Of a DNA stretch of 64,000 nucleotides, positions 9,241 to 57,541 are shown piece by piece. The stretch lies in contig OZ004608.1 in assembly GCA_963924565.1 (NCBI GenBank), forward strand, positions 23,126,001 through 23,190,000, given 5' to 3'. The stretch is from Ascidiella aspersa. Taxonomy: Eukaryota. The notes below the pieces were generated by a model. That model saw only the letters and a list, made by a program, of their open reading frames with translations, was not told the origin of the DNA and ran no database searches. Both the position numbers and the translations under genes were made by a program. Positions within the stretch are counted from its first letter, which is position 1; each line of letters begins with the position of its first letter.

Positions 9241-11069
9241 GTCTATAGTATGCCATTGCAACAAAACAAACGAGGTCAGGGTTTCCTCGTCTAAAATGTA
9301 AACCATGAAAATTTGACAAAAGTCATTGTTCTAGCTAACAATCCTTTAAGAGCCATCATCTTTAATCGTATATTTTCGTTTTGGCTGCAACATTAGCTTT
9401 CACTGTTTTATCTATAAACCAGGGGCAATATGCACTATATATCTTAAGTGCCAACAATATATAGGCAGTGATACAATTAACTTCTCCAGCCCTTATTGGA
9501 CGCGCGCCGTCGCTAAACTAAATCCGAATTGAGAGATGTGATTGTTAAATCATAGTCAACTGGTACAGTTTTGTCTTAATGAATGAGGGAATAAAATTAT
9601 CTGGCAGCATTTCATAGATTTCAATATGGAATCATTGTGCGACCCTCGTTAAAGATTAAAACGACGCACCAGGGCGTCGCAACGCAAAGTTTGAGAACCT
9701 CTGCATTGGATAAAAATAAAAATGATAATTAGGTCTAACTACATGCTTCATATTTATTGCACACTTAAGTAGCATGATAATAATTAGATTAACAAATAAG
9801 CGTTATCCTCTGTTTTGTCATGCACTGATCGACAAAGAATTTTTTTGTTGAAAACGGTGCCAAATTTGAACATGGTATAACATACCTTGACTCTAAAACA
9901 GTGTTTCTCACAGTTTTTAAGCTTAATGCACACTAAAAAAATAAAAACAAAAGGCGACACACTTCTTATATTTCGACACTGCGTGAATGCGTAATTATTA
10001 AGTTTGCGTCCTGCATGCCTGTTTGTATTCGAATATTTTTTTCCAAAATTACAAAGTTTTCGCGGTAAACTTGAGAATCTCTCGAGGCACACTTGTGTGT
10101 CGCGGTATACAGTTAAAAACCACTGCGTTAAACTATAATTTGTGACGCAATGCTGGAGTGAACCGCTTTTTTGACAGGTTTGGGCTCGGTTATAGTTCGG
10201 CTTTTTTTCAAAATTTCGTTTCAGTTGAATTCTTACAAAACATGTTTCAGGTTTAGCTACGGTTAACAAAAATATCTTAAAACCGGTTCATACTCCCTGA
10301 GATATTGTGCGCTTTATACATCCTAGTGGGTGTTTTCATAGAAGTTTCGTTGGAAAACTTTAAACTGTATACCAGTTGATTACGTCGAATTAGGGAGTCG
10401 AATAATTCGTGCGAAAAAACTCGCCTTTATTTCATTTTTTTACATACAAGCTGACCCTCTTTAAGTTACATGTTACGCTATGACGTATCTTTGTGACTTC
10501 GTACCTAAATGACCACAAAAATTGCTATCTGGTGGTTGTTTCAAAGCGTCCCGATTTTAAGCATAAAATAAGGCAGCCCAATAGTTATTATGGTAATGTA
10601 AGTTTTGCATAAAATTAATGGTACTATAGTCAACTTTTAAATATAACTGTAAATTTCACTTTTCCGTAATGCGTATACTATAGTGACAGGGAATCCCAAC
10701 CAATTTCTCGGTCTTAATACATGCATATTCTCATAAATGGTTAACTAAATTACATCGTGTAAATATCAGGGGCATGAGGAGATGGAAACTCATCTAATAG
10801 AAGTCATTCCTTATAATGGAAGCCCAGCGATGTTCGTCACCCTTTGCGCCATTTTTTAACGTTTTTGTCGCACATTTTGTGACTTTATGTGTCAAAAGTG
10901 TTATGACAAAAACAGAAAAAATTAGTTTTTGCCTGTAAGAGGAATGGTAATATTTTTGTTCCGTGATCACAGTTTAATATAAAACAATGTCATAACCACT
11001 AGTTAAAGGCAAGTTTTTGCACGGTAAATTATGTAGGTGCAGCATCAATAAAAACGAATAGTCACATAC

Positions 11070-11677
11070 CATATCCACGAGTGGCGTCGGAATTGAGGTG
11101 GGCGACCTACTGACAAATGGAAATGCGGCAATCTGTTGAAACGATGTTGTTGAAGGCTTTCGTAACCTCTTTTTTCAGCTATCTCATGCTTACTGCTACC
11201 AGTGCGACACGATAGTTCGTCATTCACACCAAGGTCGATATCGTCCCCACTACTTTGACTCTCACAACAGTCGCTATCACCCACAGATCCCCCACCGAAC
11301 CCGAAGTGGCCACGCGTTCCAGCAGATCTGCGTGGCTTGTGTCCATGTTTTGCCTTATTTTGCTTATTAGGTAAGTCAAGACTTGTCCTGTCTCCCGATT
11401 GGTGGTGGTTACAATACAAAGATGATATGACTGAATGTGACTCTACATTAGACGAAGGCGACGATAAGCCACCTGATTTGTTGGCAGTCATTGGTGCAAG
11501 TTTATAAATCCCTGGTCGTATTTTGACGCTGGCCGTCAGCAAATCGTCATCTGGAGCGTTAACGTCGTTCAGTTTGATAATAGGAAGCAGCGGAAGGTTG
11601 TTGGACATTGGTAAACATACAGATTCACTAGGTGAGAAGTGTTGCATATTTTTTAAATTATCTAGCGCCGCAGGCAT
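11070..11677 (-). CDS. PDE4: PDE4D3-like alternative N-terminal exon of cAMP-specific phosphodiesterase 4
   Basis: Ends QFRRHSWI-TG|GTATGT. The vertebrate PDE4D3 leader ends PFRRHSWIC (PKA site RRHS) just before the common exon. Phase 2; strong acceptor TCTCTTTGTAACAG| at 11752. Confidence 0.88.
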
Positions 11678-12841
11678 AAAGTGATAAATGCATATACAAC
11701 TCCACTAATTTTTTTAGTAAGCCACAGCACAACAACTTGTAAAGTAATATCCTGTTACAAAGAGACCCAGTCGCATGATTAATACGATTATTTATTATTA
11801 TTATTAACATTATTGGCTATTACAAGAAATTCCTTATTGTACAACTATACTCAAGGCTTCCTGTGATCTTTATTAAACATACTGGGCTGCAGTCGAAAAA
11901 GTAAAATCGAACTATTTTCATCTCTACACAATCGCCTTTTAAACAACCTGATTAAGGTAATGTCTTTGAAATAAAACTCAGAAATTGTTTTCCATTTTTA
12001 AGCCTCGACTACTGAGGTGGTAAGCTACACACTCAACGCAGCGCAACCAAAAATAATATATGTAATTCCAATTAGGCATTTCAATCAATCGTGCTCCTTA
12101 AAACCTTTTTTATGGCAGACCAATGGCGGGCATGCAAACAATTGGATTGTTAAGAGTTGTGCGACCAAGAGGTGGCCATTAATTTCCTGTCCCTGCAACA
12201 ATGAGCTAGCCATAATATAATGCAACCAGTTTAATAAATTACACTTTAGGAAAAGGTCGAATGGCGACTAATTCATAATTTTGGTACACTAAAAACCAAC
12301 CTATAAGTTTATGCATAAAAATCCACCAAAAATGTTAACCAAATAAGCCAAAGCATGAGAAAAATTAGGACAGCTTGAACGTTTACTTTTAGGTCAAGAA
12401 GTTTTCTAACAGATTATAAACATTATTAATACTGACAAACCATACACTAGACGAGGCCTTCTACACAACTTCGATCATTAAAATATCTGTATTTCCATAG
12501 CTTGTCATTAAGTCAACGGTCACATTAAAATAAAGCAATACGTTGTAGCTTTGCAGACATGTGGTTGCACAACCCCACAAAATGATACGTTCGCGTTCGT
12601 TTTAACAGGAAAGTCGATTAGTAGGGATGGCGGTCGATGCATTGTCATACGACTGGTTCTATTATTTATTACGGCATTATAATATTTATGATTCAGGAAA
12701 AAACACAAGTGATACCAAAGGCGATTTTCAGGACAAAAAATTATGAACGACTTTATAAAATATAAGGTACTACAGATGCTTAATTTAAACATGAAGTTAT
12801 GTTTAAATTGAGATGGAAATATACTGCATAACATGAACTTA

Positions 12842-16314: not shown

Positions 16315-16726
16315 AAGTATGATTGTTTTTGTTTTGCGTTCACGGTACAAAAACAATGAATATATCTAGGCAAAGTTGTGTAGAAACGGCTCAAAACGCA
16401 AGGTGTTGGTAAAACCAGAAAAAATACATATTAAGTTGCAATAGATTTAAATCATATGGGGATACGTTAGTAATATTAAGCTTGCTGCAATACTGCTAAT
16501 ATATATAGGACTGAAAACTATTTAACAGGCATATTTTACTAAATTGCAACTCATCGGAAGGTGTCTACAATATAGTGATGCTACACTACAGTTTCACTAA
16601 AGTCGAAAAAAGATTTATACTATTTTCACAGCACAGGATAATTTAACTAATCATGTTCAACGTAACGATTCACTTCAGCTGTTTTTTGTTCTGCGGATAC
16701 GCTAGTGTGAACAATGAACACGTTAC

Positions 16727-17289
16727 CTGGTTCTTGCCACAGTAAATCGCCTGCTTGTTTCCCCGCCTCGCTTCACCATAAAACGCCTCATTGTTTGGGG
16801 AGAAACGGGCGGAGAAGGCCCGGGACTGATACCTCCCGGCAGAAGTCCACAGCGTTGCTTCTCCTGTTGGATTTTTGCCAGGTGATGCTTATGCTCGAGC
16901 CTCCGAAGCGTTCCAGGCGATAAGTGAGGAACCAAGCAGTTGGGATGGGCGTTGCTGTGTTGGCTGTACATTGGGCCGTCATCCGGTTCTCTAACTTCCA
17001 TTCTAGGATAATTTTTTGCAGTTGTTTTTTGAGTTGGGGCATCCATCAAAACTTGTAGATTTTCTACAGAAGTAGGTTGTGGTTCAGAGATGGACTTCTC
17101 TGGTAGAGTACAGAGTTTGCTTGAACGGCGATTGAACGCAGGCGACGTAAGTAAACTTCGTCGATCTGGTTCGCTGAAGGTTTGGCCTTTGGCAAGCGAC
17201 TGTTTTTTCTGTTGACTGTCTTCATTGCGATGAGTTGAAGTAAAACTAAACGGTCGAAAAGTAGCTAGTTCTTTATCACCTTTTGACAT
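16727..17289 (-). CDS. PDE4: PDE4D5/PDE4B3-like alternative N-terminal exon
   Basis: Ends ISPGPSPPVSPQTMRRFM...RRFTVART-AG|GTAACG, versus PDE4D5 ...SPVISPRNSPRLLRRM...RRFTVAHTC. Phase 2; strong acceptor TTTTTGTTTTTAG| at 17386. Confidence 0.9.
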
Positions 17290-18917
17290 TTTGGGTTTCT
17301 ATGCTTCCAATGTATTTGAATAACAAATTACACTCTTATAAAGTTAAATAGCTTGAATAAAACATAATAAAAGTACAATTTACATCTAAAAACAAAAATT
17401 TTTGTTTGGAAGATTTAAGGTACCTACAAATAATGACCATTTCATTAAACATTAGTATAATATAATATGCTTTTAGGGGTACCTACATGAAGTTGATTTG
17501 AAATTTAATTCTTATTGACTTGTTATAATGTTTTGACTTTTACAGATTTTCCATATATTTATGAATCAACCGGACTAAACCAAACAGTTGCTATAACAAA
17601 TAAAAGATTCGTGATGCAAGGAAAATTAGATAAATTAGCTTTGTAACAGAGCAGAAGAATAGTTCTTTGATAATATCTTGGTAAATTTTCAACATAAGTA
17701 TTAACAAATCAGTAATTCAACTGGTATACGTATGCTGCCTAATTTTTGCTCTATATTTCTTGACACTCATAGTGGTCTCAGTTTTTTCTGTTTATCTCGA
17801 TACCTAATTATAAAATGTATGACAATATCCAAGAGAGTTATTGATTTTTCTCGTTTACCAGCAGGTCCACACAGACCAAGGCTTGCATAAGGTCAGCTAA
17901 GTACATTTAATATTTTTTGTCCAATACATGCTTGAACGACACCGATCTATTTAAAGCCCTTTGAGTTTAACGTGTAGAAAAACAGCATCTGTATTTGCTA
18001 TTTAACGTGTTTGTTGGGCGTATTGAGAATGAATCTCTGTTTAAAATCGTCATTCCACACTTAACCCCGTAATCCGTATGTGTCCTGCTGATGCAGTCGG
18101 CAACTGACGCAACAAATAAGCAGTCGCTCTAGTGGCATTTAGTTTGGCACGGCTGCCGGAAAAACTCAACTAGACTGAACTGTAGACACAACTATTATAT
18201 TGCAATACTTTCACGAGGTGCCCGCGCTGTGAGCTGTATTCATTAAATGCGCAATTATGCTGGATTTTTTTGTAGTTTGTAGTTTCGATTTAGTGGAGTT
18301 GAATTGTACCGGTACGGCTGTCTCACCTGTTAAAATATACAACTTGCTTAGTTCGTTTTTTTATTTAAATTATTAGCTAAACTTTACTTAAGGGCTGACC
18401 AATTCATCAGAAAAACGGTTGTACTCTGACAGTTTTGTCGTCACATATCAGTATACTATATGTTATGAAAGCTACTGGTTTCGGCTTAGGAGATTGTTTC
18501 TTCGGGTTCTGCATACATACTATATTATTTCTTCGGAAATAATATTAAATAACAAGCTGATAATATACTACCATATTTCCCCACGTTTGTTATATATCTA
18601 CTGTGGCTTGTTAGATGGATTTATCGAACACAGCAAAAAACTAATGGAGGTACATCTTGCACCAACACAAGCCCTGAACAATCCATGTGATGGTTATTTA
18701 GAAATACAGAAAAACATTCCTTTTTAGCTTTCCGTTAAACGTTTATTTGTTTCCACTAATTATATGTATACATGATCTAGTTGGCGTAATAATCGCCTGA
18801 ATTTAAGACTTGCATGTAAGGCGCTTATACCGGCGCAGAAGGTGCGGGGTAATTTGGCCGCAAAAATGATATCTGAATAAATGCAATGTATATAGGATAT
18901 CATCTTGTTATACTAAC

Positions 18918-28664: not shown

Positions 28665-30140
28665 TAAATTCTAAAACCACTCGAGTCATATAGAAACCTT
28701 AGTAGTTTAACTTTTATGCAAGCGTGTTTTGTCCTACTGCATAATAATGCATGAATGTTTGACTTATCCTTGCTATTCCAACAGTTTAGTTATTAATACA
28801 AAACAAAGCAATGTTACAACTTATTACTTAAAGCAAAAATCTCCCAGTCAAAACCTTCCGACAACTGGAGTTAAAAAAACAAATGTAGCATACCCGCTGC
28901 ACTAGGTGGCCATTAGGCAACGCAAAAAAACTATGCAAACAAAATAAGTTTTAAAAACTATGCAAACAAAATAAGTTGTTTTAATTACCAACCTATAAGG
29001 TATGAGAAAAGCTCAGTCATGCTGAACAAGAAAGACCAATAGATATTTAAAGTATAGTTGTAGTAACTTAAAGCCTACAAAGCAAACAGTCTTTTATTGT
29101 TTGTCAGCTCAAGAATTAAATGTTTATTGGACAATCTTCTCGCAATACAACCAATAAACGGTAAAAAATCAGATTTTCTTAAACGGATTCCACAACAAAC
29201 CTGACATACGACCTTTTCATAATGTCGAATCGCTGAGAGGCTGCCTAGCGCCTAATCTTTCTTACTGCGCGGGCATTCGCAAGCAACCGTCTAGCTTCTG
29301 GCTTACGTCTTGGTTATGACGTCACACACCTTCAAGGCAACAGTAATTTGTGCTTTTTTTCTTAGGTCTGCTAAAAATCTGAAGGAAGACTGCGAGATTA
29401 TTTCAGATTTGCTGAAAGCAGCAGTTCTTGTCTGCTAACCAAATAACAAGATTTACTTTTGTTGAAACGTGGGGTGTTAGTCACTTACGATGATACAACT
29501 TTTGCGGCTGGCCCGCTAATGTAAACGTAAACACAGCATTTGTCAGCAATTGAATTGTACACATGTCTGTACAAATACTTGCAAGTGATTGCTAAAACAT
29601 TTTCAAAGATTTTGTTTTACAGATTTAATTCCCAGTTTAGCTTTTCAGGGTGCACCTTGATCCTTTCAAGTGCCTTCAGTCTAAAAACCCAAAGCAAAGT
29701 AATTTTTTTTATAAATAAATCTGTCTTTTATAATATGTCTGATTGTCTGGGTACTTGTATTTCCGTACCGTTTTATGTTGATCTTTAAATATATTATATT
29801 GCTTCAGTATTGCCTGTGGGCCGTCGCCGCTTTCGGCTGCCTGTTAAGCGGACATATCGCATAGTTATTTAACAGCCCTTTCTTATATGCATTTCAGCTG
29901 CAAAGGTTAAAAAACAATCACATCACGAAAAGTATGTTTTTTGTGGTTATGTAACTCAGCGGCAGCGCTTTTCAGTAAATATGCTTATTCAACTGTTTCA
30001 TTTTGACGTTGAAAAAATTTGAAATGTACAAAGTTTAGGCAGTGCAACAACATTACAAAAATAGTTAACATTATCGTAAAATTGCGCACGTGACAAAATA
30101 CTTTGCCTTTTCACTCGTTTAGGCTTATCAAAATACTTAC

Positions 30141-30369
30141 GTGTTGAAAAGGGTTGCTTTGCCCAGCGAAGACGTATCCGATATTGTGATTCTTCTTCGC
30201 ATATTAAGTCCTCACTGTCATCGCTATCACAATTCTGATCCCGAAACTTGTTATTATTGGACGGCAAAGTTTCACAGGAAAATCGTTCTAAGAATTCTTC
30301 CCAGCTACATATTTCATTGTTTTGAGGTAATTTACCTTCTTTGGATTTTGTCGAAGTCCTTTTAAACAT
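30141..30369 (-). CDS. PDE4: PDE4 distal N-terminus, exon 1
   Basis: ATG at 30369, MFKRTSTKSKEGKLPQ...WAKQPFST-C|GTAAGT. Consensus phase-1 donor that reads in frame into the exon starting at 26241. Confidence 0.62.
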
Positions 30370-33300
30370 GTCTCATAAAAACTGCAATTTGGATTGGGTC
30401 AGTTTTCAGGTGAATTAATAGTCGTCCATTTATACCACATTTTCACAATTTTACTTCAGACTGGCAATCATAGGAATACAAAATAAAGTTTGTATCCTGC
30501 TACCTAAGCTAACATTCTGCAGATTTTGAGTAGGCGTAAGTAAGTAAGGTTAGGCTACAAAATCCAAAGCTTAAAATCTTTCCAAATGCCACAACTGCAA
30601 AGCTTTCTATGTAAGTACAGCAAACAACAGCTCAAACCTTTACTTGAAAACTTCCCTTAATGTAGTATTCTTGTCACAGCAGGTTTAAAATGTATACCGG
30701 ACATAGGCTGTCACTTCACTGTAAAAGTCGCCCACTCACATAATAGTCAAAGATAACAGTAGCAGGCCCTCTTCACAACGCATTTGGGCCATAGCATATA
30801 GCTGCGAAAGTCGAATCTGTGTGATTCGTACTACTCTGACTTGAAAAGCTGTGTTATTACCACTTGAAGCGGTTCAGAAGCATTCGTCAGCGTTCTACAA
30901 ACGTAACAGATTGTTTACAGACTGCTGCTGTTTAACAAGCAAGCTTTTCAACACACACCACACTACAGCAAATTCAATGGTTTCAGTGATGCGTTCGCCG
31001 TACATAAATGCGATTTCATTGTGTATGTAGGCTATAGCGACATGTTCAAAAATTGATGCGTCGTGGTTCAGTTTGCGTCGTTTGTAGCCTGAATACGTGC
31101 AGCGACTCTTTTTAGGGGGATAATCTACGTGACGCCAAATATTATTACAATAATCCAACGTAGATATTGAGGGATTGCCCTTTATATCTGACCAAAACTT
31201 GAAAGAAAAAATCTACCAACACCACAATAGTTGTTTACTGTTAATCTAACTGCACTTATGCACATCGTTTAAAGTACTAGGCTTAATATCAAGTTGGGTC
31301 GTAGGTTAGTGTAGCTGCAACACGCACAAAACGTTTGTAGCAATGTGTATGAATCACTGCAAATCGCGTTTTTGTTTTAATTGGTACAATATACAGCTGT
31401 GGGATCAACACAAGTTATCATAATGTACTTTTGTTACAACTGGGGCGATATGGTAACGTTTATAACGGTTAATTTTAAACAAATATAAATGCCGTAGTGA
31501 TCATTTATAAATATATTTTTTCTACACTTAACAATGGAGTAGATATGCCATCGTCTTAACTATCACAGTTCCTAGTGAACCCTGTAGGCAAATAGTTTAG
31601 TCTCGAAAAAGCTATAAATGCCAACTGATGCTGTACGAAAGCTCACAAAAGACAGGAAACCCGATTAGCTGGCATGCAACTATTTTCCGTCATGTTAGTG
31701 TGGGCTTGATATAAGTACTATACATTGTCGTGCATGAATGATTAAACACATACATTAGTTTTGTTATTACAAAATTATCAAATGCTGAGAAAATATCGAT
31801 TAAAATATTTCTATTTAGGCATTCCCGAACATGTATAGTACTAAAATCGAACCCACAAACATATGTCACGTCACAATTCAATAAGTTATTGAATTACGTC
31901 TATAAACACATTATATATGAAAAATGTTGGAAAAAAACCCTAACTTACCTCGTAGGTGGAAAAACATGCTATTCCAACTTGTAAGTCACGAAACTTAGGC
32001 AAGTAGTTCTTCACGGTTTTTAAACGGATTTCAAGTTTTACTTAGCAGCAGCAATGTTATTTTTGACATAAGTTTCAATAGGCCTATGCTTCTATAAATA
32101 TCAATAAACGAATTATATAACGGTAGATTCCGATGTGTGACTATACAGGTCACTAGCCCCTTAAAAATACTAGTCCCTAAAATCGTTAAAATGTCTTCTA
32201 AACACATGGCAAATATTGATCGCAAAAGGTGTTTTTTCCATTCTTAAACCCAATTACTCGTTCTCGTTAAGTATACTGTTGATGAAAAACGCGGCTGTGG
32301 TGTAAGTCAAGATTATTTCGCCTCCAGCTAAACTCGCTTTTTAATGAAAGCATAGGTTTTTTAATTTCCAGTGATTTATAATGTTTCTTGAGTTGGGGCT
32401 GGCATCTATTGCATAATTTGAAATGGTTTGCAGCATAAGTAACAATTTATAGTGAGTTTATTAGTCATACCCATGGCGAAGATTTTTTTTTTTCTTTTTT
32501 TAACGTCAATATTTGTTGTAAAGAAACTTGAGAGTGTTTTCTGATCACCTGTGAAATGCGAATTCGTTTGTTTTCGTAGTTGGTTGATATTTTGGGCATA
32601 TAGAAAATACCAAACAGTTATGAATATCCCTCTGTACGAAAAACAGGCTCGCTATTCTTTAAAATTGCAGTTGAAACTTGTCGATTTTCTAGGTTATTAG
32701 GCCACCAATCCCTTCAGCATTATAAACTTTATCTACTTTTACAGAAATATTTACCATAAAAGGTTGAATCGATGCTTACATTTGTATATTAATTAGGTAT
32801 CGGATCGGCACCGACACCACTGTACAAGTCATTGAGTTGACGTTCGCATTCGCCAATCGAAAAACTAGAGGACTCGGATTCACCAAACCATTTTTTTGAC
32901 CTTACCAAAATAAATTGACGTTTTGCATAGTGGAAATGTTTCTAACTTTGTTTGACAATAGCAGGGTGTACTGTGTCACCTACAAATGATTATCACCTAA
33001 ATTAATATTTAAACACTTTAACTAGATAAAAGCTTCTTTAGAAGTTTTTGGTGATTTGTGGGGCCTGGATCCGCCCCTTTCATCACTACTTCTTAATAGA
33101 AAGTATGTTTTAGGAAGGAAGACTTGTTTAAGGAAGTTTAAAAAACTAAACTCAATAATGATTAACGTATCACTTTGAGTTTCCCATACTATACTGTATA
33201 TTTTTAAAGTAAGTGGCGTTTAGAGCATTTTACACAATTATGTAGAAAACTTTGATACTGAAATCAAATTTGTAAACAACGTCACTCGTTTTCAGTTTTT

Positions 33301-43000: not shown

Positions 43001-45421
43001 CAGTGCAGCTTAGGATTTCGAAAACAATTTGCTGTGCGGTGCTGTGCTGTGCAGCTTGCAAACAATTTCTTAAAATGCAGTGCGGTCCGTGAACACAAAT
43101 TTTCTCCCAGCATTATCTCTTGTTGTACTCTACCTCTGTTGGCAAAAGTATTCTTTGTAAACAATTCACATTTAGTATAATTTAGGTAAACACCGCCTCA
43201 TGCGGTAACCAAGTCGTCTCATTTTTTTGCTGGAAACGTATAGGCGTTTTGTTTTGCTAAAGTTTTTGAACTGCTAAGGCTTTATTATTAATGTCTTAAC
43301 AAAAGTAATTTAAAGCTTAGTTTAAAACCAACTGTATCAAGTTACATTTGCTGTGCATTTAAAAGTTATTTGAACCCAACATTTGCTCAGTATATAATAA
43401 TCTTAAGAATCATCATTAGAGTACTTTTCATTTGTAACGGCAAATGTTTTCATAGTGCCACAATAATTAGCCTGAATATAATGTTACAATTACAGTGTGA
43501 CTTAGTAACTATAATATACACAATCTTTAATTGAAGATCCAGGCACAAAACTATTCGGTGAGACTTATTTTGTTGTTTGCTTGTGTAAAGTGTATATATA
43601 ATATGCCCATTCGTTAATTTTGGAAAATCGATAACTCGCCTGTATAGACTATTTGCTCGTCCTGCCAATTGCAGCATTAAAATCTTGTCACCAATAATAA
43701 AATTCGTTGGATGATACCTTTGTGAAGTTTTGGGGGAGAGAACCGTACTTGTATATAGGAGAGCAAGTTTTTGAAAAGTTAAACCTGAAGTACCCGATCG
43801 GGCGTCTGCGCAGGTCTGGGGAGCGGAAGTAGACGTTTTACAACCTCTATGCAAAATTGTTTAGTGGAACACCTACGACCTACGTTATACTACAAGCTTT
43901 CGTTGAACCTCAAATAAAAGTGTTTGTGGATGACTGCACGTGATGCCATAAATATAAATCTAAAAAAACTGTCGTTCTTTCGCAAAGCCGCTCAATTATG
44001 CAGGCAAACTCCTAAAGAAAAAATGCGGCTATTAGATGGTTTAAATGTCATAACTTTCAATTTCAAAGAATTCGTGACCCCAGGAGATGAAAAGAAGGCT
44101 ATAAATGCTGATGCGCCCACTTATACAGGTACAGTACCGTAATATAGTCTCTCAATGGTTGATTGCAACTTAAGCTATCTATTTTATATCGGTTAAGGCT
44201 CACGGTTTTAACACACAACCCCTTTCATTGTGGCACCGGTCAGTCGGCGGTTGATAACCACTTTTTTAGAGGACGTTTTTGCCAAACCCCTGAATAACAA
44301 CCAAGGCTAGTCAGCAAATAATTTCTGGCAGATTATTTCAACGTCAAAATAAACTTAATTACGTATATTTTTTTCGAAAAAAATTTTTACCACCATCTTG
44401 AGAATGGACTATATTTCTTAGATTTTGAAAAAAAAAATTAATATTCGAAAAAATATTAATATTCAATATTAATATTCGCCATAAAAAATAAATTAAAATT
44501 TTCATCCCAGGTTGAAACTCATATTTTTGAGTAGCGCAGGAGTAAACCTTTCCAATGATGCCTCGCTTGCTATAAATTTGTTGGGGAGTAAGGGTTTAAT
44601 TCGGCAAAAACCGATAGTAATATTCATGACATATCGCGATAATTTTTGAAAGTCTCTAGTACCCTTATTAAAAATCACAATCGAACGAAACTTTCACACG
44701 TTCATTTTCAAAGACGTAGTTTGTCAAAGAACAAAAAAAATTTAAAAATTTTTAAAGTTTTAAAAATTTCATATTAATCTATTAATAGTCCCGATATCGC
44801 GATTTTTCACCCCAAAAACATCCGACCACAATAGGCACAAATAACTTTCATCCCACCATAAAACCAAACACATTGCATAGACATTGATCTCACCTTTCCA
44901 ATGATGCCTCGCTTGCTATAAATTTGTTGGGGAGTAAGGGTTTAATTCGGCAAAAACCGATAGTAATATTCATGACATATCCCAATAATTTTCCAAAGTT
45001 TCTATGACATATCGCGTTGCCTTTGTTTTGAATTAAGCGCGTAGTGCTAAAAAATTCCTTTGTTTAATCAATTGTTAGACCTCATTGTCCTTCTGCGAGT
45101 TTTTTTCTGTCTCTGCAAGATACTATTGTTCTTCTAAAAGCTAAAGGATGTTATCACTTCGCACCAATTTTAGCACTATCGGTATGAAGCGAAAAAGTTC
45201 TTATGGACCACAGCTTTTTATAAGTTCAATTTCATGGTCATTTCATTTCAGTTTTAAGATCGTGATGAGTATACATTATATAAAGCATGGTTTAATCAAG
45301 CAGGAACTGTTGCTGAATTCTATTTTCAAATAAGTGGAATCCAGTAGTGTTTTTGTCAAATGCGCATTGAAATAGATAATTTAATTCAAGGAATATTTGC
45401 TCTTTGACCAGTGGTGTTTCA

Positions 45422-46574
45422 ATGAGTAAGAACTCTCAGGCATGTCCTAATATCGTTAACGAACGCAATAAAAAAATTAAATTTGACACCCGTATTTTAA
45501 GTAAACATTCAATTAGCTTCAGGAAAATCAGTATTTTTTCCCCAGGTTTCTCGCTGTTCGGAAGATTGTGGGACACGCGCGGTGAAAAAAGCTTCATTCA
45601 AGCCTGTGGTGGGTAAAGCAAATGTTACCCTTCGATAACTGTAAAAACACTAATGATTTTGAATTTTCTAGACCTTTCCGCGGGCACCAATGTGCGAAGC
45701 ACCACCAGTTGCATCGAAGTTGTTTTTTGGTTTTCCCGCGAACGTGGTGTGTCTGTGAAAACGCTTGTGTGTATAACAATTTCTAAACACTGCTTTATGT
45801 ATTTTCTTGTAGAAGACGGTTGGAGCACGGACATTTGCTCCACCGACCAACGGACCGAGGATAAAGGTATCCACCAATGCGGTAAGTGTTTTTTGCAAAA
45901 CTATTGGTTGTCAAAGTAGGTGTGCTGAATCATCTAACTATATTTTCTTGTAGAAGACCGTTGGAGCAGGGGCATCTGCTCCTTCGTTTAGCGGGTCAAC
46001 GGAAAAGGTACCTACCCCTGGGGTGAGTTGTTCTTTTGCAAAACTTTAATCATCTGTCAATGCTTAGTTTAAATCACAAATGTATTTACTTTCAGGGGGA
46101 GGAAAATGGGTGGATAGTCGTGGGTTCAAGGAGGTCAAGAAAAGTCACACCCACCCTTGCGGTAAGTTTTGTTGCAAAACTTTTGGTTGTCAAAGTAGGT
46201 GTGCTGAGTCATCTAACTATATTTTTTTGTAGAGGACCGTTGGAGCACGGACATGTGCTCCTTCGACCAGCGGGCTAAAACAGGAGGACTCCAAGCCTGT
46301 GGTAAGTGCTGTGGTTCAACTCTATATTGTCCTCAATACTTTAGTAGTTTAGATTGGATCGTCTAACTCTGTCTTCTTGTAGAGGAACGTTGGAGCAACG
46401 ACCTCTGTTCCATCGAACAATGAGCTCAAACCCACGAGTGCTTTAACAGATTATTATTTTTGCAGAGAGATTCAACGAATTTATGGCGGTGCCCTTAGTA
46501 CATTATCGAATGATGATAAGATAAAGTCGATAAAGGTCGCCATTGAATCGTTCGATGGACTATTGATAGATTAA
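45422..46574 (+). CDS. Predicted spliced gene inside the foldback element, about 206 aa, repetitive and low complexity, function unknown
   Basis: Phase-0 exons 45546-45608, 45672-45746, 45813-45881, 45954-46022, 46096-46161, 46233-46301 and 46383-46574 are all open in one frame, with GT-AG introns of 63-81 nt. Putative first exon 45422-45439 (MSKNSQ, GC donor). Confidence 0.7.
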
Positions 46575-47493
46575 TATGAAATTTTTAAAACTTTAAAATT
46601 TTAAACATTTTTTTTGTTCTTTGACAAACTACGCCTTTGAAAATGAACGTGTGAAAGTTTCGTTCGATTGTGATTTTTAATGAGGGTACTGGAGACTTTC
46701 AAAGATTATCGCGATATGTCATGAATATTAATATCGGTTTTTGCCGAATTAAACCCTTACTCCCCAACAAATTTATAGCAAGCGAGGCATCATTGGAAAG
46801 GTGAGATCAATGTCTATGCAATGTGTTTGGTTTTATGGTGGGATGAAAGTTATTTGTGCCTATTGTGGTCGGATGGTTTTGGGGTGAAAAATCGCGATAT
46901 TGGGACTATTAATAGATTAATATGAAATTTTTAAAACTTTAAAATTTTTAAATATTTGTTTGTTCTTTGACAAACTACGCCTTTGAAAATGAACGTGTGA
47001 AAGTTTCGTTCGATTGTGATTTTTAATGAGGGTACTAGAGACTTTCAAAGATTATCGCGATATGTCATGAATATTAATATCGGTTTTTGCCGAATTAAAC
47101 CCTTACTCCCCAACAAATTTATAGCAAGCGAGGCATCATTGGAAAGGTGAGATCAATGTCTATGCAATGTGTTTGGTTTTATGGTGGGATGAAAGTTATT
47201 TGTGCCTATTGTGGTCGGATGTTTTTGGGGTGAAAAATCGCGATATCGGGACTATTAATAGATTAATATGAAATTTTTAAAACTTTAAAATTTTTAAAAT
47301 TTTTTTTGTTCTTTGACAAACTACGTCTTTGAAAATGAACGTGTGAAAGTTTCGTTCGATTGTGATTTTTAATAAGGGTACTAGAGACTTTCAAAAATTA
47401 TCGCGATATGTTATGAATATTACTATCGGATTTTGCCGAATTAAACCCTTACTCCCCAACAAATTTATAGCAAGCGAGGCATCATTGGAAAGG
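46558..47493. repeat. 346-bp tandem repeat (about 2.7 units) in the right TIR; about 1.3 inverted units at 44546-45000
   Basis: CATCATTGGAAAG ends at 46800, 47146 and 47492; the inverse ACCTTTCCAATGATG starts at 44546 and 44892. Confidence 0.92.
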
Positions 47494-48492
47494 TTTACTC
47501 CTGTGCTACTCAAAAATATTAGTTTAAACCTGGGATGAAATTTTTAATTTATTTTTTATGGCGAATATTAATATTTTTTCGAATATTAATTTTTTTTTTC
47601 AAAATCTAAGAAATATAGTCCATTCTCAAGATGGTGGTAAATTTTTTTTTGAAAAAAATATACGTAATTAAGTTTATTCTGACGTTGAAATAATCTGCCA
47701 GAAATTATTTGCTGACTAGCTTTTGGTCTGAATAACGTCATTTAGCCTTTCCACATGGCCGCTTCAAAGGTGGCTTTAAAGGTGGCCTGGCCACCTTTGC
47801 CTCCGAAAAAGCCACTTTTCCGCCAAAAAGGTGGCTTTTCGCTGGCCCTACTCCAGAGTAGGTCCAGGCCACTGTGGCTTTTGCGAAAGGTGGCTTTTGG
47901 GTGTGCGTATCGTAAGGTTTTCGGTTTGCACGGTTCACCTTCTACCTAATTTCGGTTTATGTGTTATCAAGTGACGATTTTTGCGCAGCCATGCGTTCCA
48001 TAGCGAAAGCAAGGTACATTTTAGTGACAAAAGGTGTATTGTAATTAAAATTTATTGTATAGTTAACGGTTTTATAAAACTGTGTGCTAGGTTCACCTTA
48101 TTTTGTACTTTGCAACACACGTTGCTGTGATTTAAACCATCAGTTTTTTTGCGCGACAAAGCTATTTGCACCTGCCACAACGTGTTTGGAGAGGTCAGCA
48201 GCACATGCCTTGTTATGGAAAAAATAATTTTGCTGAAGAACCCGCAGTTGCTTTAGAGTTAAATTGCAGTATGTTTATCTGTTTTTTGGGGGGTATTGTA
48301 TATTTTCTAAATCACTCCGGTAAGTGTGTGATGCTATATTTTGCTAACAACTTACCAACAATATTTTTGGGTTGTTTTAGCAACTGTTCTGTATTTTAAT
48401 TATTTTGTTACAAAACAAAAGTGTTCTATTTCCTAACTTCAATTCTCTTTACTAGCTTGCCATGAATTCTAGGGCAAAATGGTCAGAACAAG

Positions 48493-48800
48493 TGAAGTAA
48501 CTAACAATAAACGTCGTCAAGTTCGTTTACTATAGCTTTAATCAACAATTTACAACATAGAGTGCTGTAACAAAAAGAACGTTATTGGTAACGAATATAA
48601 AAGAGTACCCAATAAGAGAAACTGACAAAGACTGACGAAGCATAGTAAAGTTACGCGAGTTATAAAGGGAAGGAAAGAATGTAACAAGACGCGGGACGTA
48701 TAATGATAATTACGGAGAGAGGCAAGGAAAAGAAAGGAGAAACGCACAGAAGCAAATAGCATAGAAATCAGAGTGAACAATAGAAACATAAATCATTACA
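48493..48800 (-). repeat. 3' LTR
   Basis: 306/308 identical to 52598-52905. Confidence 0.95.
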
Positions 48801-48826
48801 TTCATCCCTTCTAGATAAAAGACCCT

Positions 48827-51800
48827 TCAGACAGTCCAGTCTCCGTAGCGGACAGGAGCCCGACGTTCACGACCCGATCGTCGGATGTCGGGGAGAGGTA
48901 CCTCGACTCCAGGAGAGGAGGCGGGTTCCGAGGTCGGTTCATCTTCAACCGGTACCGGTGCCTCGCCTTCAGAGGTCCGAGAGGTTTCGGCGTCGCAAGG
49001 GGGAAAAGCGTCTTGGAGCGACTCAGGAGAACCAGGACACGGAGCGAGGTCGGATGTAGAGACTGTACTTTCGCGCCCATCAGAAAACCGAACATGGGCG
49101 TAGGATGGATTCGCGTCGAGCAATGTGACAGGGTCACACTGGGGCTCTCCCTTGGTTCGAACAAACCTACGTAAAAGAACAACACCACGATTAAGTAGCC
49201 ACGAAGGCATAGCGGTACCGGTTAAAGCTCGTCTCGGGAAACGGAGGAATCTTTCATGAGGTGTTTCGTTAGTCGCCGTACAGAGAAGCGAACGAATAGC
49301 GTGAAGAGCCTCTGGCAACACTTCCCCCCAGCGGTTGCCTGACAGACCACGACTGTGAAGTAGAAGTTTAATAGTTCTGCAAACCGTTTGGTTTGTCTTT
49401 TCGCACTGACCATTACCTTGTGGATGATAGGGCGTTGATTTACTGTTGCAATGCCCCGAGTAGTAAGAAACTGACGAGTTTCTTTGCTGATAAAAGAAGT
49501 CCCACGATCACTGTGAATATATTCGGGAAAACCGAATAAACAGAAGAGGACGGAGAGACACTCGATGACGGAGCGGGACGTCATGTCTCTGCAAGGAAAA
49601 ACAAACGGATATCGACTATACTCGTCAACTAGCACTAGAAGGTACGGATTCGGTCCCTGTACAGGACCCTTGAAGTCCATGCTCAGTCGCTCCCACGATC
49701 TCGTTGCTTTGACCAGATCCCGAGGTTCCGGTCTGTAGAAACGTGGTTTTAGTTCGGCGCAAGAGCGACAGTTACGCCCGACGGCTTTGGTTTCCTCGGG
49801 AGTGAACGGCAGGTTCTTACTTTTTATGAAGTGATACATACGGGCGTATCCCGGATGTCCCATCGCTTTATGCAACTCCTCAAGATTTCGCGTAGAACCT
49901 GTGAAAGCACATACCCGTGATAGAGCGTCGGGGACCACGTTTTGGACACCAGGGCGATGACGGATATCGTAAGAATATTGACCCAACTCTAGCCTCCACG
50001 AAGTGATCTTGGCGTTTTTAATTTTACCTCGATTGGTTCGGTCGAACATATAGGACACAGACTTTTGATCAGTGATGAGAGTAAAACTTCGGCCCTTTAG
50101 AAAGTGAGCCCACTTGCGGACTGCTTCGACAATGGCGGTCGCTTCCTTCTCAATAGCAGGATAGTTCCGCTCATACTTGCTAAGAGTACGTGACATAAAA
50201 GCTACCGGGCGCCCGTTCTGAGATAAAACTGCAGCAATAGCGAAGTCAGAAGCATCGGTTTCCACCTCGAAGGGAACGCCGTCGCGAATAGCCCCAAGAG
50301 TTATCCTTTCGAGCTCAGTCTTTAAATCACGGAAGGAACGGATGGCCGTCTCATTCAGAGGAAAACGATTTGCAGTGAGCAAAGGCTGTACGCGACGAGA
50401 AAAGTCCTTGATCCACTTAGCGTAGTAGGAGAACATCCCCAAGACGCGTTTCAAGGCTTTGGGTGACGTGGGTGGCGAGAGCTCGAGAAGAGGCTGTAGA
50501 CGTTGAGGATCCGGCTGTATTTTGTTTTGACTAATCCGGTATCCCAGGAAATCTAAAGAACTACGGCGAATCATTGACTTCTCTTCATTAAGAGTGAGAT
50601 TCTGCCGAGCAGCAGCTTGAAGTAGAGCTCGAAGGTTGCTGTCATGTTCCTCCAAAGTCGAACCCGTTACAGTTATGTCGTCGAGATAGGCATAGACCTT
50701 TTTCAGCTTATTAGCTTCAATAAACTCGTCAATAGCGCGCTGAAACGCGGCGACCCCATCAGTGACGCCGAACGGCAGGCGTTTGTATTGATACAGTTTT
50801 CCGCCAGCTTCAAAAGCCGTGTAGTGTCGCTCACCAGGTAACAACGGAACTTGATGATAAGCGGAACGCAGGTCGAGCGAACTAAAGAACTTATCTTGAG
50901 CGACCTTGTTTACTATTTCCTCAATCTTCGGCAATGGATAGGCGTCCAACTGGGTAAATCGGTTTATGGTGAGAGAGTAGTCGACAACCAGTCTCTTCTT
51001 GTTACCACGAGAAACCACTAGTACAGGAGCTCTCCAAGGAGAACGAGCAGGTTCTATAATATCAGACTCTAAGAGACGCCTGATCTCATCATTGATAAAC
51101 TTCCAGTCTTCTTTACTATATCGACGAGAGCGTGCAGCTATGGGAGTACAACCTGGAAGCAAAAACTCAAATAGGCGAGGGGGGGTTTAAGTCAGCGACG
51201 GCCAAAGAAAGGTGGGATAAATCATTGAATCCAATTTTCAGGGGTGCTTCCGATCCACCCATGAAGAAACTAACCTCGATATGTTTCTTCAGAAAGTCCT
51301 GACCGAGAACAACGTCAGCGCAAAGGTCATCTAAAACACTAAAGGTTAGGAGGTATGATCGACCTAGTAGGGCTATGGTAGCGGTGGTTCTTCCCGAAGT
51401 AGCGATAGAGAGACGAGAGGAGGCCATGGAAATGGAGGAGTGGGGTCCGAAGGTCTTCAGACGAAGCTTGGTGGCTAACCTTTTGTTGACAAAGTTTTCG
51501 GAAGCCCCGGATTCGATCAAAACTTGGACCGGAGTGGATTGTAGAGTCGCATCGACTAACGCAGGACCCAGACAGGAAGGAGCACCGGCCAGGAACGAGG
51601 GCGGAAGATGACCGGAAATCATGGAAGAACCAACGGCGGTAGGAGACGCGGGTCGTGGATTCACTCGGCGGGAGGAATTCGAAGAACGACTCTGGCAGAC
51701 TCGTGAAAAGTGTCTCTTTTTTCCACATTGGTAACAAGTAGCGTTACGGGCAGGACAGGTCGCGCGGCTGCTGTGCTGTCCACCACCGCAGAAATAGCAC

Positions 51801-52503
51801 AAGTTACCTTTAGCTTTTAAGCTTAAGGAACACAAGTTACCTTTAGCTTTTAAGCTTAAGAAACAGACTCGGGAGAAGTGGCGGAACTTCCATTCCCGTC
51901 GCTTTCCAGCTCTTTAAAGGCGGGAACAGACGCCACAGAAGGAATTGTCTTGCCCATCAAAACAGACTGCTGCTGCGCTTTGGACAGGCTTTCGGCAAGC
52001 TGAGAAGCCTTAGTTAAATCAAGATCTTCTATTTCCAAGAGACGTTGACGGATGAACGGAGCCGAAAGACCGTTTATGAAAGCATCTCTGGTAAGATCGT
52101 CTTTGTATTGATGAGCCGATACTGGAAGAAAAGTACAATCCTTCGCTAAAAGTTTAAGTTCCCGCAAATACTCCGCGAGTGTCTCGTCGGAGCCTTGATG
52201 ACGACTTACAAGTAGATAGCGAGCGAATACGTTATTTTTCTTCTTCACGTACATTTGTTTTAAAGTACTGACGATTTCTTCGAAGGAGTCAACATCCTCT
52301 ACATAAGAGAATATGTCTGGAGATAAACAGTTGACAATGATGCGCTTCCTGTTTGCAGCGGAAGTGGTGTTATCGCCTTCGTCGAGATGGTCGATAAAGT
52401 CGTTAACGGAGCGTAACCAATACGCGAAGTGTCGAGCAGCATTAGGAGCTTCGGGCTCGATCGTCAAAGTTTTAGGCCGCAAAAGTTGTCGGTTTTCCAT
52501 CAT
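48827..52503 (-). pseudogene. gag-pol: gag-pol polyprotein disrupted by three frameshifts
   Basis: Gag; two zinc knuckles (e.g. CYQCGKKRHFSRVC); protease LIESGA; RT YLDD; RNase H ETDAS; integrase HHCC and D,D,E. Frame breaks at about 51860, 51180 (G7 run) and 49444. Confidence 0.92.
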
Positions 52504-52597
52504 GGAAATGTTGTTGATTAAATTGAAGTCTTTTATATTGTCTTTTATATTCGTTACTAATAACGTTCTTTTTGTTACAGCACTCTATGTTTTAAAT

Positions 52598-52905
52598 TGA
52601 AGTAACTAACAATAAACGTCGTCAAGTTCGTTTACTATAGCTTTAATCAACAATTTACAACATAGAGTGCTGTAACAAAAAGAACGTTATTAGTAACGAA
52701 TATAAAAGAGTTCCCAATAAGAGAAACTGACAAAGACTGACGAAGCATAGTAAAGTTACGCGAGTTATAAAGGGAAGGAAAGAATGTAACAAGACGCGGG
52801 ACGTATAATGATAATTACGGAGAGAGGCAAGGAAAAGAAAGGAGAAACGCACAGAAGCAAATAGCATAGAAATCAGAGTGAACAATAGAAACATAAATCA
52901 TTACA
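52598..52905 (-). repeat. 5' LTR with TATAA (52765-52769), Inr-like TCAGT (about 52738) and ATTAAA (52642-52647)
   Basis: Direct reading; TATA-to-Inr spacing is about 31 nt. Confidence 0.93.
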
Positions 52906-54830: not shown

Positions 54831-55421
54831 ATGAGGATATAACAATTTGTAGTCAGCAACCGCCGTCTCTTTCTTACTTTTGTTTTCAAAATAAACTTGT
54901 CTCTTTTAGGTACTATTTCATAAATCTCCAAAATACTACATCTTGGAAATAATTTTTCGGTCTCTTATCGCTTATATACTCAAAGACAACCGTACGAATG
55001 ATAGAAAACTGTGGCACAAACAGCGTTCACTTTATCTGAACGACCATGTGAATTGACCGCTAAAAGTGGCCAAAAAAGCCACCTTTTTCAGCCGGCCACC
55101 TTTGAAAAAGCCACCTTTCAAGTTGGCCATGTGGAAAGGCTAATTGTAACTTCACAAAAGTAAAATTTAAGGAGAAAGTCCGTCAATACAAAAAATTTTA
55201 AAATTTAGTTAATTGTATCAAAAATCAATTGCCCGAATCTCTATGAACATTACTTTTGGGGAAGCCATTTAGGTTGGAAAAAGTAAAATCGATAAAGCTA
55301 TGTTACTCTCGCCGTATTCACTGATTTTTGAAGACGAAAAAAATTTGCACCCAATTAGAAAATTTCGTTTCATAGAGATTTTATTTGTATAACTTACATG
55401 TAAAAGAATGCCAGTGTGAGT

Positions 55422-57541
55422 TGTCGCAACACGTCAGCACATCAAATTAATTCTTTGTTTTATCGCCTTAATGTTGCGTCATGAAAGCTTTTGTTTAAAT
55501 TCGATTGCCGATATCTCTTGCTAGAGTTTGCAACGAATGCCTTGTTACACCAATTTTTATGCGTCAGAGCTGTATGTGATGTTACGTATATCCGTTTAAA
55601 GTTAACGCATGTTTTGAAATTCGCCTTATTGTCAACAATCCGGTATTTTTTAGAATCGAACGCCAGTTACGTCGCTATGTAGATCGAAGCGCTTTTGTTC
55701 AAGCCATATTGGGACTAAAATATTATTTCCGTCTATAAGAGTCGAGAGAAAAAGGTTTAGACCACGCCTTGTTATCACGTGATATTTTGTTAAGTATTAT
55801 AAGAATTAATGACGTAAATCTTTCTTTGTTCGCAGAAATTTTTTTAACTGATTCTCGTCTATAAATAGCGTGTTCAATCAATATAAAATGGGGAGGCTTT
55901 TACAGCTTTTACTAAGACAGAAAAATTGACTGTTCATGTATCTGAACTAAAGGAAAGAATTGGACCTGAATGGCCTCAGGAAGACAAGCCATCTCAAATC
56001 TTGTAGGAGTGTGGTCGATTCATCTTGGCAATTATATAAATGAAGACTCATTAATCTGACCCACCCCCTCAAATTGGCGCGACCCGAGTAAGGATCGAAG
56101 AACTCAAATTTCACGCATATGTACAAGAAAAGATCTGCCTTAGTCTGTAGGGACCAGCTACAAGCGACCGCCTAAAAACTGTCATGTTTGGAACTTGCAA
56201 GAAGCCAGCTTTAGAAGAAAATAATCTCATCGAAAGATACGTGAAGAGACGCTCCATAGCGTCAGCAAAGCATTTGCTTGGATTACGGAACACTAAATAT
56301 AAACAAGCGTATTTTCTTGTGATGCGTCGTTATTTTAAAACTTACATTGAACGAATTGTGCAAACTAAAAAATGCAAATTTTTAAGGAAATGTTGCTTAA
56401 TGTTAAAAATCAATAGAATTTAATTTTGTATTGAATCGCAAAAGATTTTGAAATTTTAGAAAACAAACACAACAAGCGTTGGACAAAGCGATAGATCGAG
56501 ATGCAACGCGCAAAACAACGGCTTCCTGGTGACGTCAGAATTGCAACGCACCGCGCAGGGATTTTCTCCTGCAAGCCGCACAGATTTCCTGAAAAGCAAA
56601 AAGCCACAGCAAACTGCTCTGGCGTGTCGATGAAACACATTTCAAGCAACCAGCGAACGCTGACATCAAAATCCTCGTTGCCAGTTCAGGCACAAACGAA
56701 AATTTTCTCGAGGAATCAGGAATCGAACCAAAAACAATTGCGCAAATGCGTTAAATGATCGGACAATTTCGCGTCCAATGCTCCATAAGCATTTCACAAC
56801 AGCTGAAACACAACACACGAAAACAATTGGAAAATAATGTCATTCCTATATATTCGAAATGACTGCAAAACCTTTGCAAAGGGAGTATTTGTCGCAACAC
56901 GTCAGCACATCAAATTAATTCTTAGTTTTATCGCCTTAATGTTGCGTCATGAAAGTTTTTGTTTAAATTCGATTGCCGATATCTCTTGCTAGAGTTTGCA
57001 ACGAATGCCTTGTTACACCAATTTTTATGCGTCAGAGCTGTATGTGATGTTACGTATATCCGTTTAAAGTTAACGCATGTTTTGAAATTCGCCTTATTGT
57101 CAACAATCCGGTATTTTTTAGAATCGAACGCCAGTTACGTCGCAATGTAGATCGAAGCGCTTTTGTTCAAGCCATATTGGGACAAAAATATTATTTCCGT
57201 CTATAAGAGTCGAGAGAAAAAGGTTTAGACCACGCCTTGTTATCACGTGATATTTTGTTAAGTATTATAAGAATTAATGACGTAAATCTTTCTTTGTTCG
57301 CAGAAATTTTCTTAACTGATTCTCGTCTATAAATAGCGTGTTCAATCAATATAAAATGGGGAGGCTTTTACAGCTTTTACTAAGACAGCAAAGTTGACTG
57401 TTCATGTATCTGAACTAAAGGAAAGAATTGGACCTGAATGGCCTCAGGAAGACAGGCCATCTCAAATCTTGTAGGAGTGTGGTCGATTCATCTTGGCAAT
57501 TATATAAATGAAGACTCATTAATCTGACCCATACCCCTACA
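55422..57541 (+). mobile_element. Non-autonomous LTR retrotransposon (about 650-bp LTRs, about 820-bp internal region)
   Basis: LTRs 55422-56071 and 56890-57541 (TG...CA, about 98% identical); 4-bp TSD GAGT; PBS-like TGGCGCGACC at 56075; PPT-like AAAGGGAG before the 3' LTR; no pol. Confidence 0.88.

Follow-up and report, generated by a model that had tools for sequence, protein, structure and literature searches.

Ulp1, OTU and USP domains have been known for more than 15 years on proteins of MULE, Ginger and Helitron transposons. Ulp1-like proteases cut after Gly-Gly. SGNH/GDSL esterases are also found in the ORF1 proteins of CR1/L2 elements. MULE and Ginger1 transposases, like the element described here, carry a C-terminal Ulp1-like protease and a PHD finger fused to a DDE transposase; a role in host ubiquitin/SUMO pathways has been proposed for the protease, and the accessible text of that account, in which the string "cleav" occurs 0 times, describes no N-terminal esterase and no internal Gly-Gly site (PMC2836005). 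Among viruses, adenain, which is structurally related to Ulp1, cuts (M/I/L)XGG-X, and the coronavirus protease PLpro cuts LXGG in its own polyprotein (PMC7464072); viral DUB domains serve as polyprotein processors (PMC3417536). A bacterial CE protease autoprocesses without need for its catalytic Cys and is not a direct precedent (PMC13125535).

Rehavkus foldback elements, a sister group of MULEs, have a 9-bp target-site duplication (TSD), a single ORF, a PHD finger and terminal inverted repeats (TIRs) with tandem repeats in their subterminal part, as does the element reported here (PMC6446971, PMC12581902). Their hosts are given as arthropods and annelids, and the accessible parts of these accounts say nothing of a protease, an SGNH domain, a repeat linker, introns or a di-glycine motif (PMC6446971, PMC12581902). 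The closest named homologs of the present element come from ascidians and sea cucumbers. The accessible part of PMC13359780 makes no mention of a protease. We describe the present element as Rehavkus-like by its TSD, ORF, PHD and TIR features, a likeness that extends to these features.

The locus lies in a window of 64,000 nucleotides from the ascidian Ascidiella aspersa. The explanation that we favor as a whole, and consider rather probable, is that it is a deleted MULE copy of a one-gene family whose product is likely a self-cut polyprotein.

Anatomy of the window element and its longer relatives

The element occupies positions 44299-47727 of the window and is flanked by identical copies of a 9-bp TSD; a TSD of this length was also present in 5/5 other element copies checked. 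Its features are as follows.

44290-44298: left 9-bp target-site duplication, identical to 47728-47736
44299-45004, plus strand: left TIR, a terminal part of about 247 bp and about 1.3 copies of a 346-bp subterminal unit
45005-45533, plus strand: 5' non-coding region of the element, containing ATG 45422; 98% to locus L033
45533/45534: junction of the 5' deletion, which removed about 1.5 kb including the ATG exon and the SGNH exons
45546-45608, plus strand: linker exon A, 63 nt, phase 0; directly after the last SGNH exon in L049/L033
45672-45746, plus strand: linker exon B, 75 nt, phase 0
45813-45881, plus strand: linker exon C, 69 nt, TVGA-type
45954-46022, plus strand: linker exon D, 69 nt, TVGA-type
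46096-46161, plus strand: linker exon E, 66 nt, acidic-W-x-V-V-basic type; also in family L081/L083
46233-46301, plus strand: linker exon F, 69 nt, TVGA-type; repeated 3-5 times in L031, L033 and L034
46383-46556, plus strand: exon G, the 5' end (58 codons) of a large last exon that encodes 1228 aa in L031
46476-46490, plus strand: RIYGG codons, conserved di-glycine motif and predicted C48 cleavage site
46556/46557: junction of the 3' deletion, which removed the helical domains, the DDE core, the C48 protease and the PHD finger
46557-47727, minus strand: right TIR, 2.7 copies of the 346-bp unit and the terminal part; supplies the stop at 46572-46574
47728-47736: right 9-bp target-site duplication, matching the left one

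The left and right TIRs match over 706 nt at 95%. Their subterminal units measure 345/346 bp and differ in copy number between elements. In the 309-Mb genome the element interior has 99 matches and the TIR end at least 42, with 40 of 332 candidates scored. The 9-bp TSD, the long TIRs and the loss of the core at 46556/46557 agree with the original prediction of a foldback/MULE element without a transposase core.

The six internal exons first described from the letters of the window (63, 75, 69, 69, 66 and 69 nt) were reproduced at their coordinates, with AG acceptors, GT donors and introns of 63-81 nt, all in phase 0 and free of stops. Four of them had been said to begin with (K/R)(T/N)VGA; three of the six do begin with (K/R)TVGA, and the fourth such start is that of the terminal exon (46383). 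Between the introns at 45882 and 46162 the identity is 93%, which upholds the view that exon-intron units were tandemly duplicated, and the number of units in the array varies between genomic copies. A predicted 206-aa product was likewise recovered. It runs from ATG 45422 to a TAA at 46572-46574, inside the right TIR as had been claimed, and requires a GC donor at 45440. The gene limits held in part: an open model exists, but ATG 45422 differs from the conserved family start, and the final six residues and the stop are TIR sequence. Both ends of the model are by-products, because the start and SGNH exons and the part after 46556 have been deleted.

Two side observations concern the array. The exon type at 46096-46161 (L081:6094-6008 in another subfamily) keeps its acidic residues, W-x-V-V and basic residues across subfamilies; we presume that it resembles a short linear motif, such as an Atg8-interacting one. 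The last intron before RIYGG has shrunk to 28 nt in the window's subfamily (46438-46466) and is read through; it is intact in some subfamilies and absent in L045, L046 and L049. These states appear to be stages of an intron loss in which the frame was kept.

Longer copies in the same genome show what the window copy has lost. At 46556 the window sequence departs from the transposase ORF and enters a TIR unit; in L031 and L034 its last exon continues as an ORF of 1228 and 1227 aa, respectively, encoding two small helical domains, a putative MULE-type DDE core, a C48/Ulp1-like protease and a PHD finger (Pfam E 2.8e-6). The approximately 1.5 kb missing at 45533/45534 is present in L033, L081, L083 and L085, and in L033 it holds an ATG exon and SGNH-hydrolase-like exons that are conserved in four subfamilies. 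The copies fetched from the window's own subfamily are incomplete, L031 and L034 lacking the 5' part and L033 the core. Intact relatives have one open CDS of 11-20 exons and 1619-1838 aa: L081 (11 exons, 1619 aa) and L083 (20 exons, 1838 aa) are open from the ATG to the stop after the PHD finger, with GT-AG introns. L101, from a family with an intronless linker, has an open CDS of 4 exons and 1540 aa. The domain order is SGNH hydrolase-like domain, mini-exon linker, RIYGG, helical domains, DDE core, Ulp1-like (C48) protease and PHD finger. Comparison of genomic copies, a check proposed with the original prediction, turned up a putative MULE-type transposase encoded in the same gene. Since intact copies read through SGNH exons, mini-exons and transposase, the mini-exons almost certainly encode a linker between the SGNH domain and the transposase in one gene, and with the same high confidence the window copy derives from a Rehavkus-like foldback MULE by two deletions. 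The locus itself is an ordinary dead derivative; it is presumably moved in trans and would make no functional protein.

Assignment of the domains draws on motifs and profiles. P0001 has D-x-T-G, a second D, CxxH and E motifs in common with P0003, a pattern that we take to be that of a MULE-type DDE core; the window copy has no core. The Pfam MULE model gave no match to P0001 and a weak match to P0007, 34% identical to it (E 0.0014, under the cut-off), and a word-indexed protein search with P0001 gave 1 match among 3787 candidates. The N-terminal domain shows SGNH blocks I, II, III and V with the catalytic Ser and His, retaining the serine, GTND and DxxH blocks. Pfam Lipase_GDSL_2 reached E 9e-6 for a Ciona homolog, P0157 (under the cut-off), and E 0.18 for one exon. 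A search with the SGNH exon against longer proteins matched 0 of 218 candidates, which is weak evidence. We regard the domain as SGNH hydrolase-like, a putative esterase. In the protease, the residues of a His-Asp-Cys triad and oxyanion Gln are invariant in 7/7 aligned sequences. Pfam C48 scores P0001 at E 4e-4 and 20.6 bits, just under the cut-off of 20.7; the nearest PDB sequences are those of SENP1 (E 0.01), and the structure model has a pLDDT of 39.9, too low for a statement on the fold.

Other repeats were seen in the genome and in the window. L035:2217-3059 is a derivative with three tandem 121-aa helical-domain units and no mini-exons. A dense cluster of decayed, rearranged family copies at G000:C2:37.0-37.95 Mb (L050, L098, L099 and L119) is possibly a silencing (piRNA-like) locus. 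On the minus strand of the window, 48490-52905 is a Ty3/gypsy-like LTR retrotransposon with gag-, protease- and pol-like ORFs in separate frames, bounded by 311-bp direct repeats that are 99% identical (48490-48800 and 52595-52905). Also on the minus strand, 473-1597, 11045-11704, 16723-17298 and 29998-30372 are long low-complexity open frames resembling exons of a large host gene. Positions 55421-56069 and 56889-57538 form a 650-bp direct repeat of 98.5% identity. A short G/C-rich repeat cluster at 47745-47900 adjoins the right end of the element; it is possibly the terminus of another transposon beside which the element inserted.

The Gly-Gly junction and its possible cleavage

Directly after the linker, RIYGG is shared by the five subfamilies that make up the window's clade, whose cores are 83% identical where this can be measured. 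In 6/6 copies compared the motif is invariant even though the codons of R, Y, G and G differ synonymously; its neighbors vary. Genome searches with the SGNH exon and with a distant core found further families, of 46-47% and about 24% core identity, that have the same domain order and linkers made of intronless tandem repeats of unrelated sequence. A Gly-Gly is found at the linker/helical boundary in 12/12 in-genome representatives tabulated, down to 24% core identity, the motifs beside RIYGG being RLLGG, LRVGG, LKVGG, LRFGG, IRIGG and IKTGG. Only the two glycines are invariant; at P4, some families have a hydrophobic residue and others a basic one.

Gly-Gly at this boundary was predicted before the last 20 loci were read. 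Two of these were continuation stretches, nine had no helical domain, and nine retain the region. Among the latter, Gly-Gly is present in eight, including three new families, and the ninth is frameshifted there. In L121, L126 and L140 the helical profile gave no match, and Gly-Gly was placed by position or downstream likeness. Two sister families, L121+L122 (G000:C8:25927500-25943000) and L124+L125 (G000:C6:919000-934000), have single open frames of 2850 and 2917 aa with C48-like and USP (C19) protease domains both after the DDE core; in the close relative P0006, PHD fingers precede the core.

An external search of 1.84 billion representatives gave 3938 matches, and the findings given here come from the 150 listed. 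Among these, ascidians and sea cucumbers supply the closest named homologs. In Ciona intestinalis, XP_026695318.1 and its cluster member P0157 contain the SGNH domain, repeat linker, LCGG, helical domain and start of the core, so that Ciona gene models combine everything from SGNH to the beginning of the core in a single protein. At the linker/helical boundary the sequence is QSGG in Styela clava XP_077975817.1 and LKGG in Apostichopus japonicus XP_071847526.1. The strict pattern [RK][ILVMF]xGG upstream of the core was found in 1 of 34 external homologs with at least 120 aa upstream, which does not exceed the level in shuffled sequences (mean 0.48) and speaks against a conserved site; in most of these 34 proteins the helical domain was not located. 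It was located in ten external proteins. Gly-Gly is present in 5/5 of those with at least 25 aa before the domain, against a background of 8.7% of windows, a comparison whose P is inflated since the seeds were hand-picked, three of them after Gly-Gly had been seen. The other five start at a Met 9-17 residues before the helical domain, without Gly-Gly, and four of the five show no protease domain. The exception, P0136, has its Met start at the helical domain yet retains the start of a USP domain. This pattern fits a leader, Gly-Gly and protease that go together across homologs, but truncation of the Met-start proteins by the gene caller could also explain it. A metagenome contig scan for DNA upstream of the Met-start homologs returned 506 pattern matches, none confirmed.

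Because the C48 residues are intact, adenain and PLpro offer precedents at xGG sites and the Gly-Gly is conserved, we predict, at about even confidence, that the element makes a polyprotein in which its own C48 protease cuts after Gly-Gly and frees the transposase. Translation would give a single polyprotein of SGNH domain, linker, Gly-Gly, helical domain, DDE core, protease and PHD finger. The C48 domain would then cut after Gly-Gly, as happens in viral polyproteins. The products would be a leader of SGNH domain plus linker and a mature transposase beginning with the helical domain, which likely binds the TIRs. On this view the linker is a disordered spacer of free length, in which length counts for more than sequence, and could therefore expand by any kind of tandem duplication: exon-intron units here, intronless repeats in sister families.

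Paired domains have a Gly-Gly linker, and the main rival draws on that parallel. Here the Gly-Gly would be part of a flexible minor-groove-binding arm in front of a helical DNA-binding domain, the protein would stay a single chain, and the protease would act on host SUMO/ubiquitin conjugates. This is a tentative reading that we think unlikely, although several observations suit it. The first helix of the small three-helix domain follows the Gly-Gly at a distance of 7-20 residues, and the residues around the motif are often basic. The helical domain (model pLDDT 61.5) weakly resembles HTH/Myb-like DNA-binding folds, all at Z below 5 and TM below 0.5; its fold found no match at Z of at least 5 among 48,161 chains, and an Atlas search with the Ciona homolog gave no usable feature match. 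Ulp1/OTU domains of transposable elements may act on host repair factors, according to the accessible text of PMC2836005. Against a DNA-binding arm, residues after the Gly-Gly are not conserved, the five homologs with Met at that position do without it, and so does the duplicated second helical domain, which is not decisive.

It is improbable that an enzyme other than C48 makes the cut after Gly-Gly in the polyprotein, be it a host deubiquitinase, a host SUMO protease or the USP domain that some of the sister families also have. The motif does resemble the LXGG end of ubiquitin, ISG15 and NEDD8 (PMC7464072), and the L121 and L124 families carry USP domains too. However, the window's family has a C48 domain only, with intact catalytic residues, and the USP-bearing families keep a C48-like triad. 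Host enzymes usually need a ubiquitin fold in front of Gly-Gly, and none precedes it here.

Coding and splicing of the linker

The original prediction offered two origins for the mini-exons, a stand-alone accessory protein or a Pack-MULE-like capture. Either reading, a 206-aa accessory gene in its own right or host sequence taken up by the element, with combinatorial skipping, is now very improbable and already largely refuted. A 206-aa open model can indeed be built in the window copy, and symmetric exons permit skipping; however, the model depends on the GC donor, its start lacks conservation across subfamilies, its stop is TIR sequence brought in by deletion, and longer, intact copies place the exons within the transposase CDS. 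As for capture, the interior is collinear with the element's own transposase gene in the part of the 99 matches inspected, and SGNH exons lie upstream in the same frame. Combinatorial skipping would be possible in principle.

That the mini-exons are coding is suggested by their frame. TVGA-type units numbered 96 in 23 oriented loci, of which 84 have a donor; the 12 without one were left out, and the copies are related, so that the counts are not independent. Unit length is divisible by 3 in 83/84, and stops fall in 2/84 units in phase 0, 15/84 in phase 1 and 35/84 in phase 2. Pairwise pN/pS among 46 unique 69-nt units is 0.62, 1.18 and 1.13 in phases 0, 1 and 2, and a tree-based codon model gives omega of 0.73, 1.74 and 1.22. 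The phase-0 omega of 0.73 is not significantly below 1 (2dlnL 3.2). Constraint is stronger in the SGNH exon (pN/pS 0.28) and in the RIYGG and helical region (0.44). Since stops and pN/pS are reduced in phase 0 and omega is not significantly below 1, the linker is probably constrained in its frame more than in its residues, as expected of a spacer.

Read in phase 1, the mini-exons yield an attractive W/C-rich peptide, but this reading was rejected; it has stops in 15/84 units, pN/pS of 1.18 and omega of 1.74, and it is out of frame with the SGNH domain and the last exon.

RNA data came from one run, of which about 6% was read. Two targets drew 64 and 126 reads, on both strands and in some cases intron-containing; no mini-exon junction reads were listed for either target, and most of the L081 linker was without coverage. 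Two reads join the ends of a predicted SGNH intron (L033 4133-4237). At this thin coverage, splicing of the mini-exons stays a prediction.

The least probable alternative, in which the array is a selfish non-coding tandem repeat, spliced out or retained, and the transposase starts at a Met in the last exon, can appeal to the missing junction reads, the intron-containing reads and the phase-0 omega, but it sits poorly with 83/84 units being multiples of 3, with stops depleted in phase 0 only, with the fused Ciona gene model, and with RIYGG, which is conserved at the protein level although in P0001 the first Met of the last exon comes only about 110 residues after it.

Comparison with known systems

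What is new is the junction, a Gly-Gly between linker and helical domain kept across divergent families. Neither an SGNH-fused MULE transposase nor a self-cleavage site was found in the accessible open-access literature, a scope that excludes Repbase Reports, subscription papers and supplements. Within this family one linker evolves in two ways, some subfamilies duplicating exon-intron units and others intronless repeats. The conserved internal Gly-Gly also names a concrete substrate for the protease, the transposase precursor; the earlier proposals in the accessible text of PMC2836005 concern host proteins. It is an evenly balanced proposition that a lineage of animal cut-and-paste transposons makes a virus-like polyprotein whose own Ulp1-like protease removes a leader of esterase and repeats from the transposase at a ubiquitin-mimicking Gly-Gly. 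If true, polyprotein processing would be added to the repertoire of DNA transposons, with an SGNH esterase co-translated with a DDE transposase and released from it. A self-substrate would explain deSUMOylase/deubiquitinase-like domains on transposases, and cleavage would provide a built-in switch for transposase activation or delivery.

Schistosome micro-exon genes, which are stand-alone genes for secreted proteins with very short symmetric exons and shown skipping, resemble the array in its small symmetric exons. They differ in that the exons here are of 63-87 nt and form an internal linker of a transposase CDS. Pack-MULEs are likewise TIR elements with an exon-bearing interior; the interior here is, in contrast, the element's own gene. 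Terminons and LTR elements, according to the accessible text of PMC6431247, also carry an SGNH/GDSL esterase on a mobile element. Unlike the esterases of retroelements, the domain reported here is in frame with the DDE transposase of a DNA transposon. Adenain and PLpro share with this element an Ulp1/DUB-type cysteine protease and an xGG site within the same protein (PMC7464072). The present system differs from them in being a cut-and-paste DNA transposon, in that cleavage is predicted, and in that about half of its sites have no hydrophobic residue at P4.
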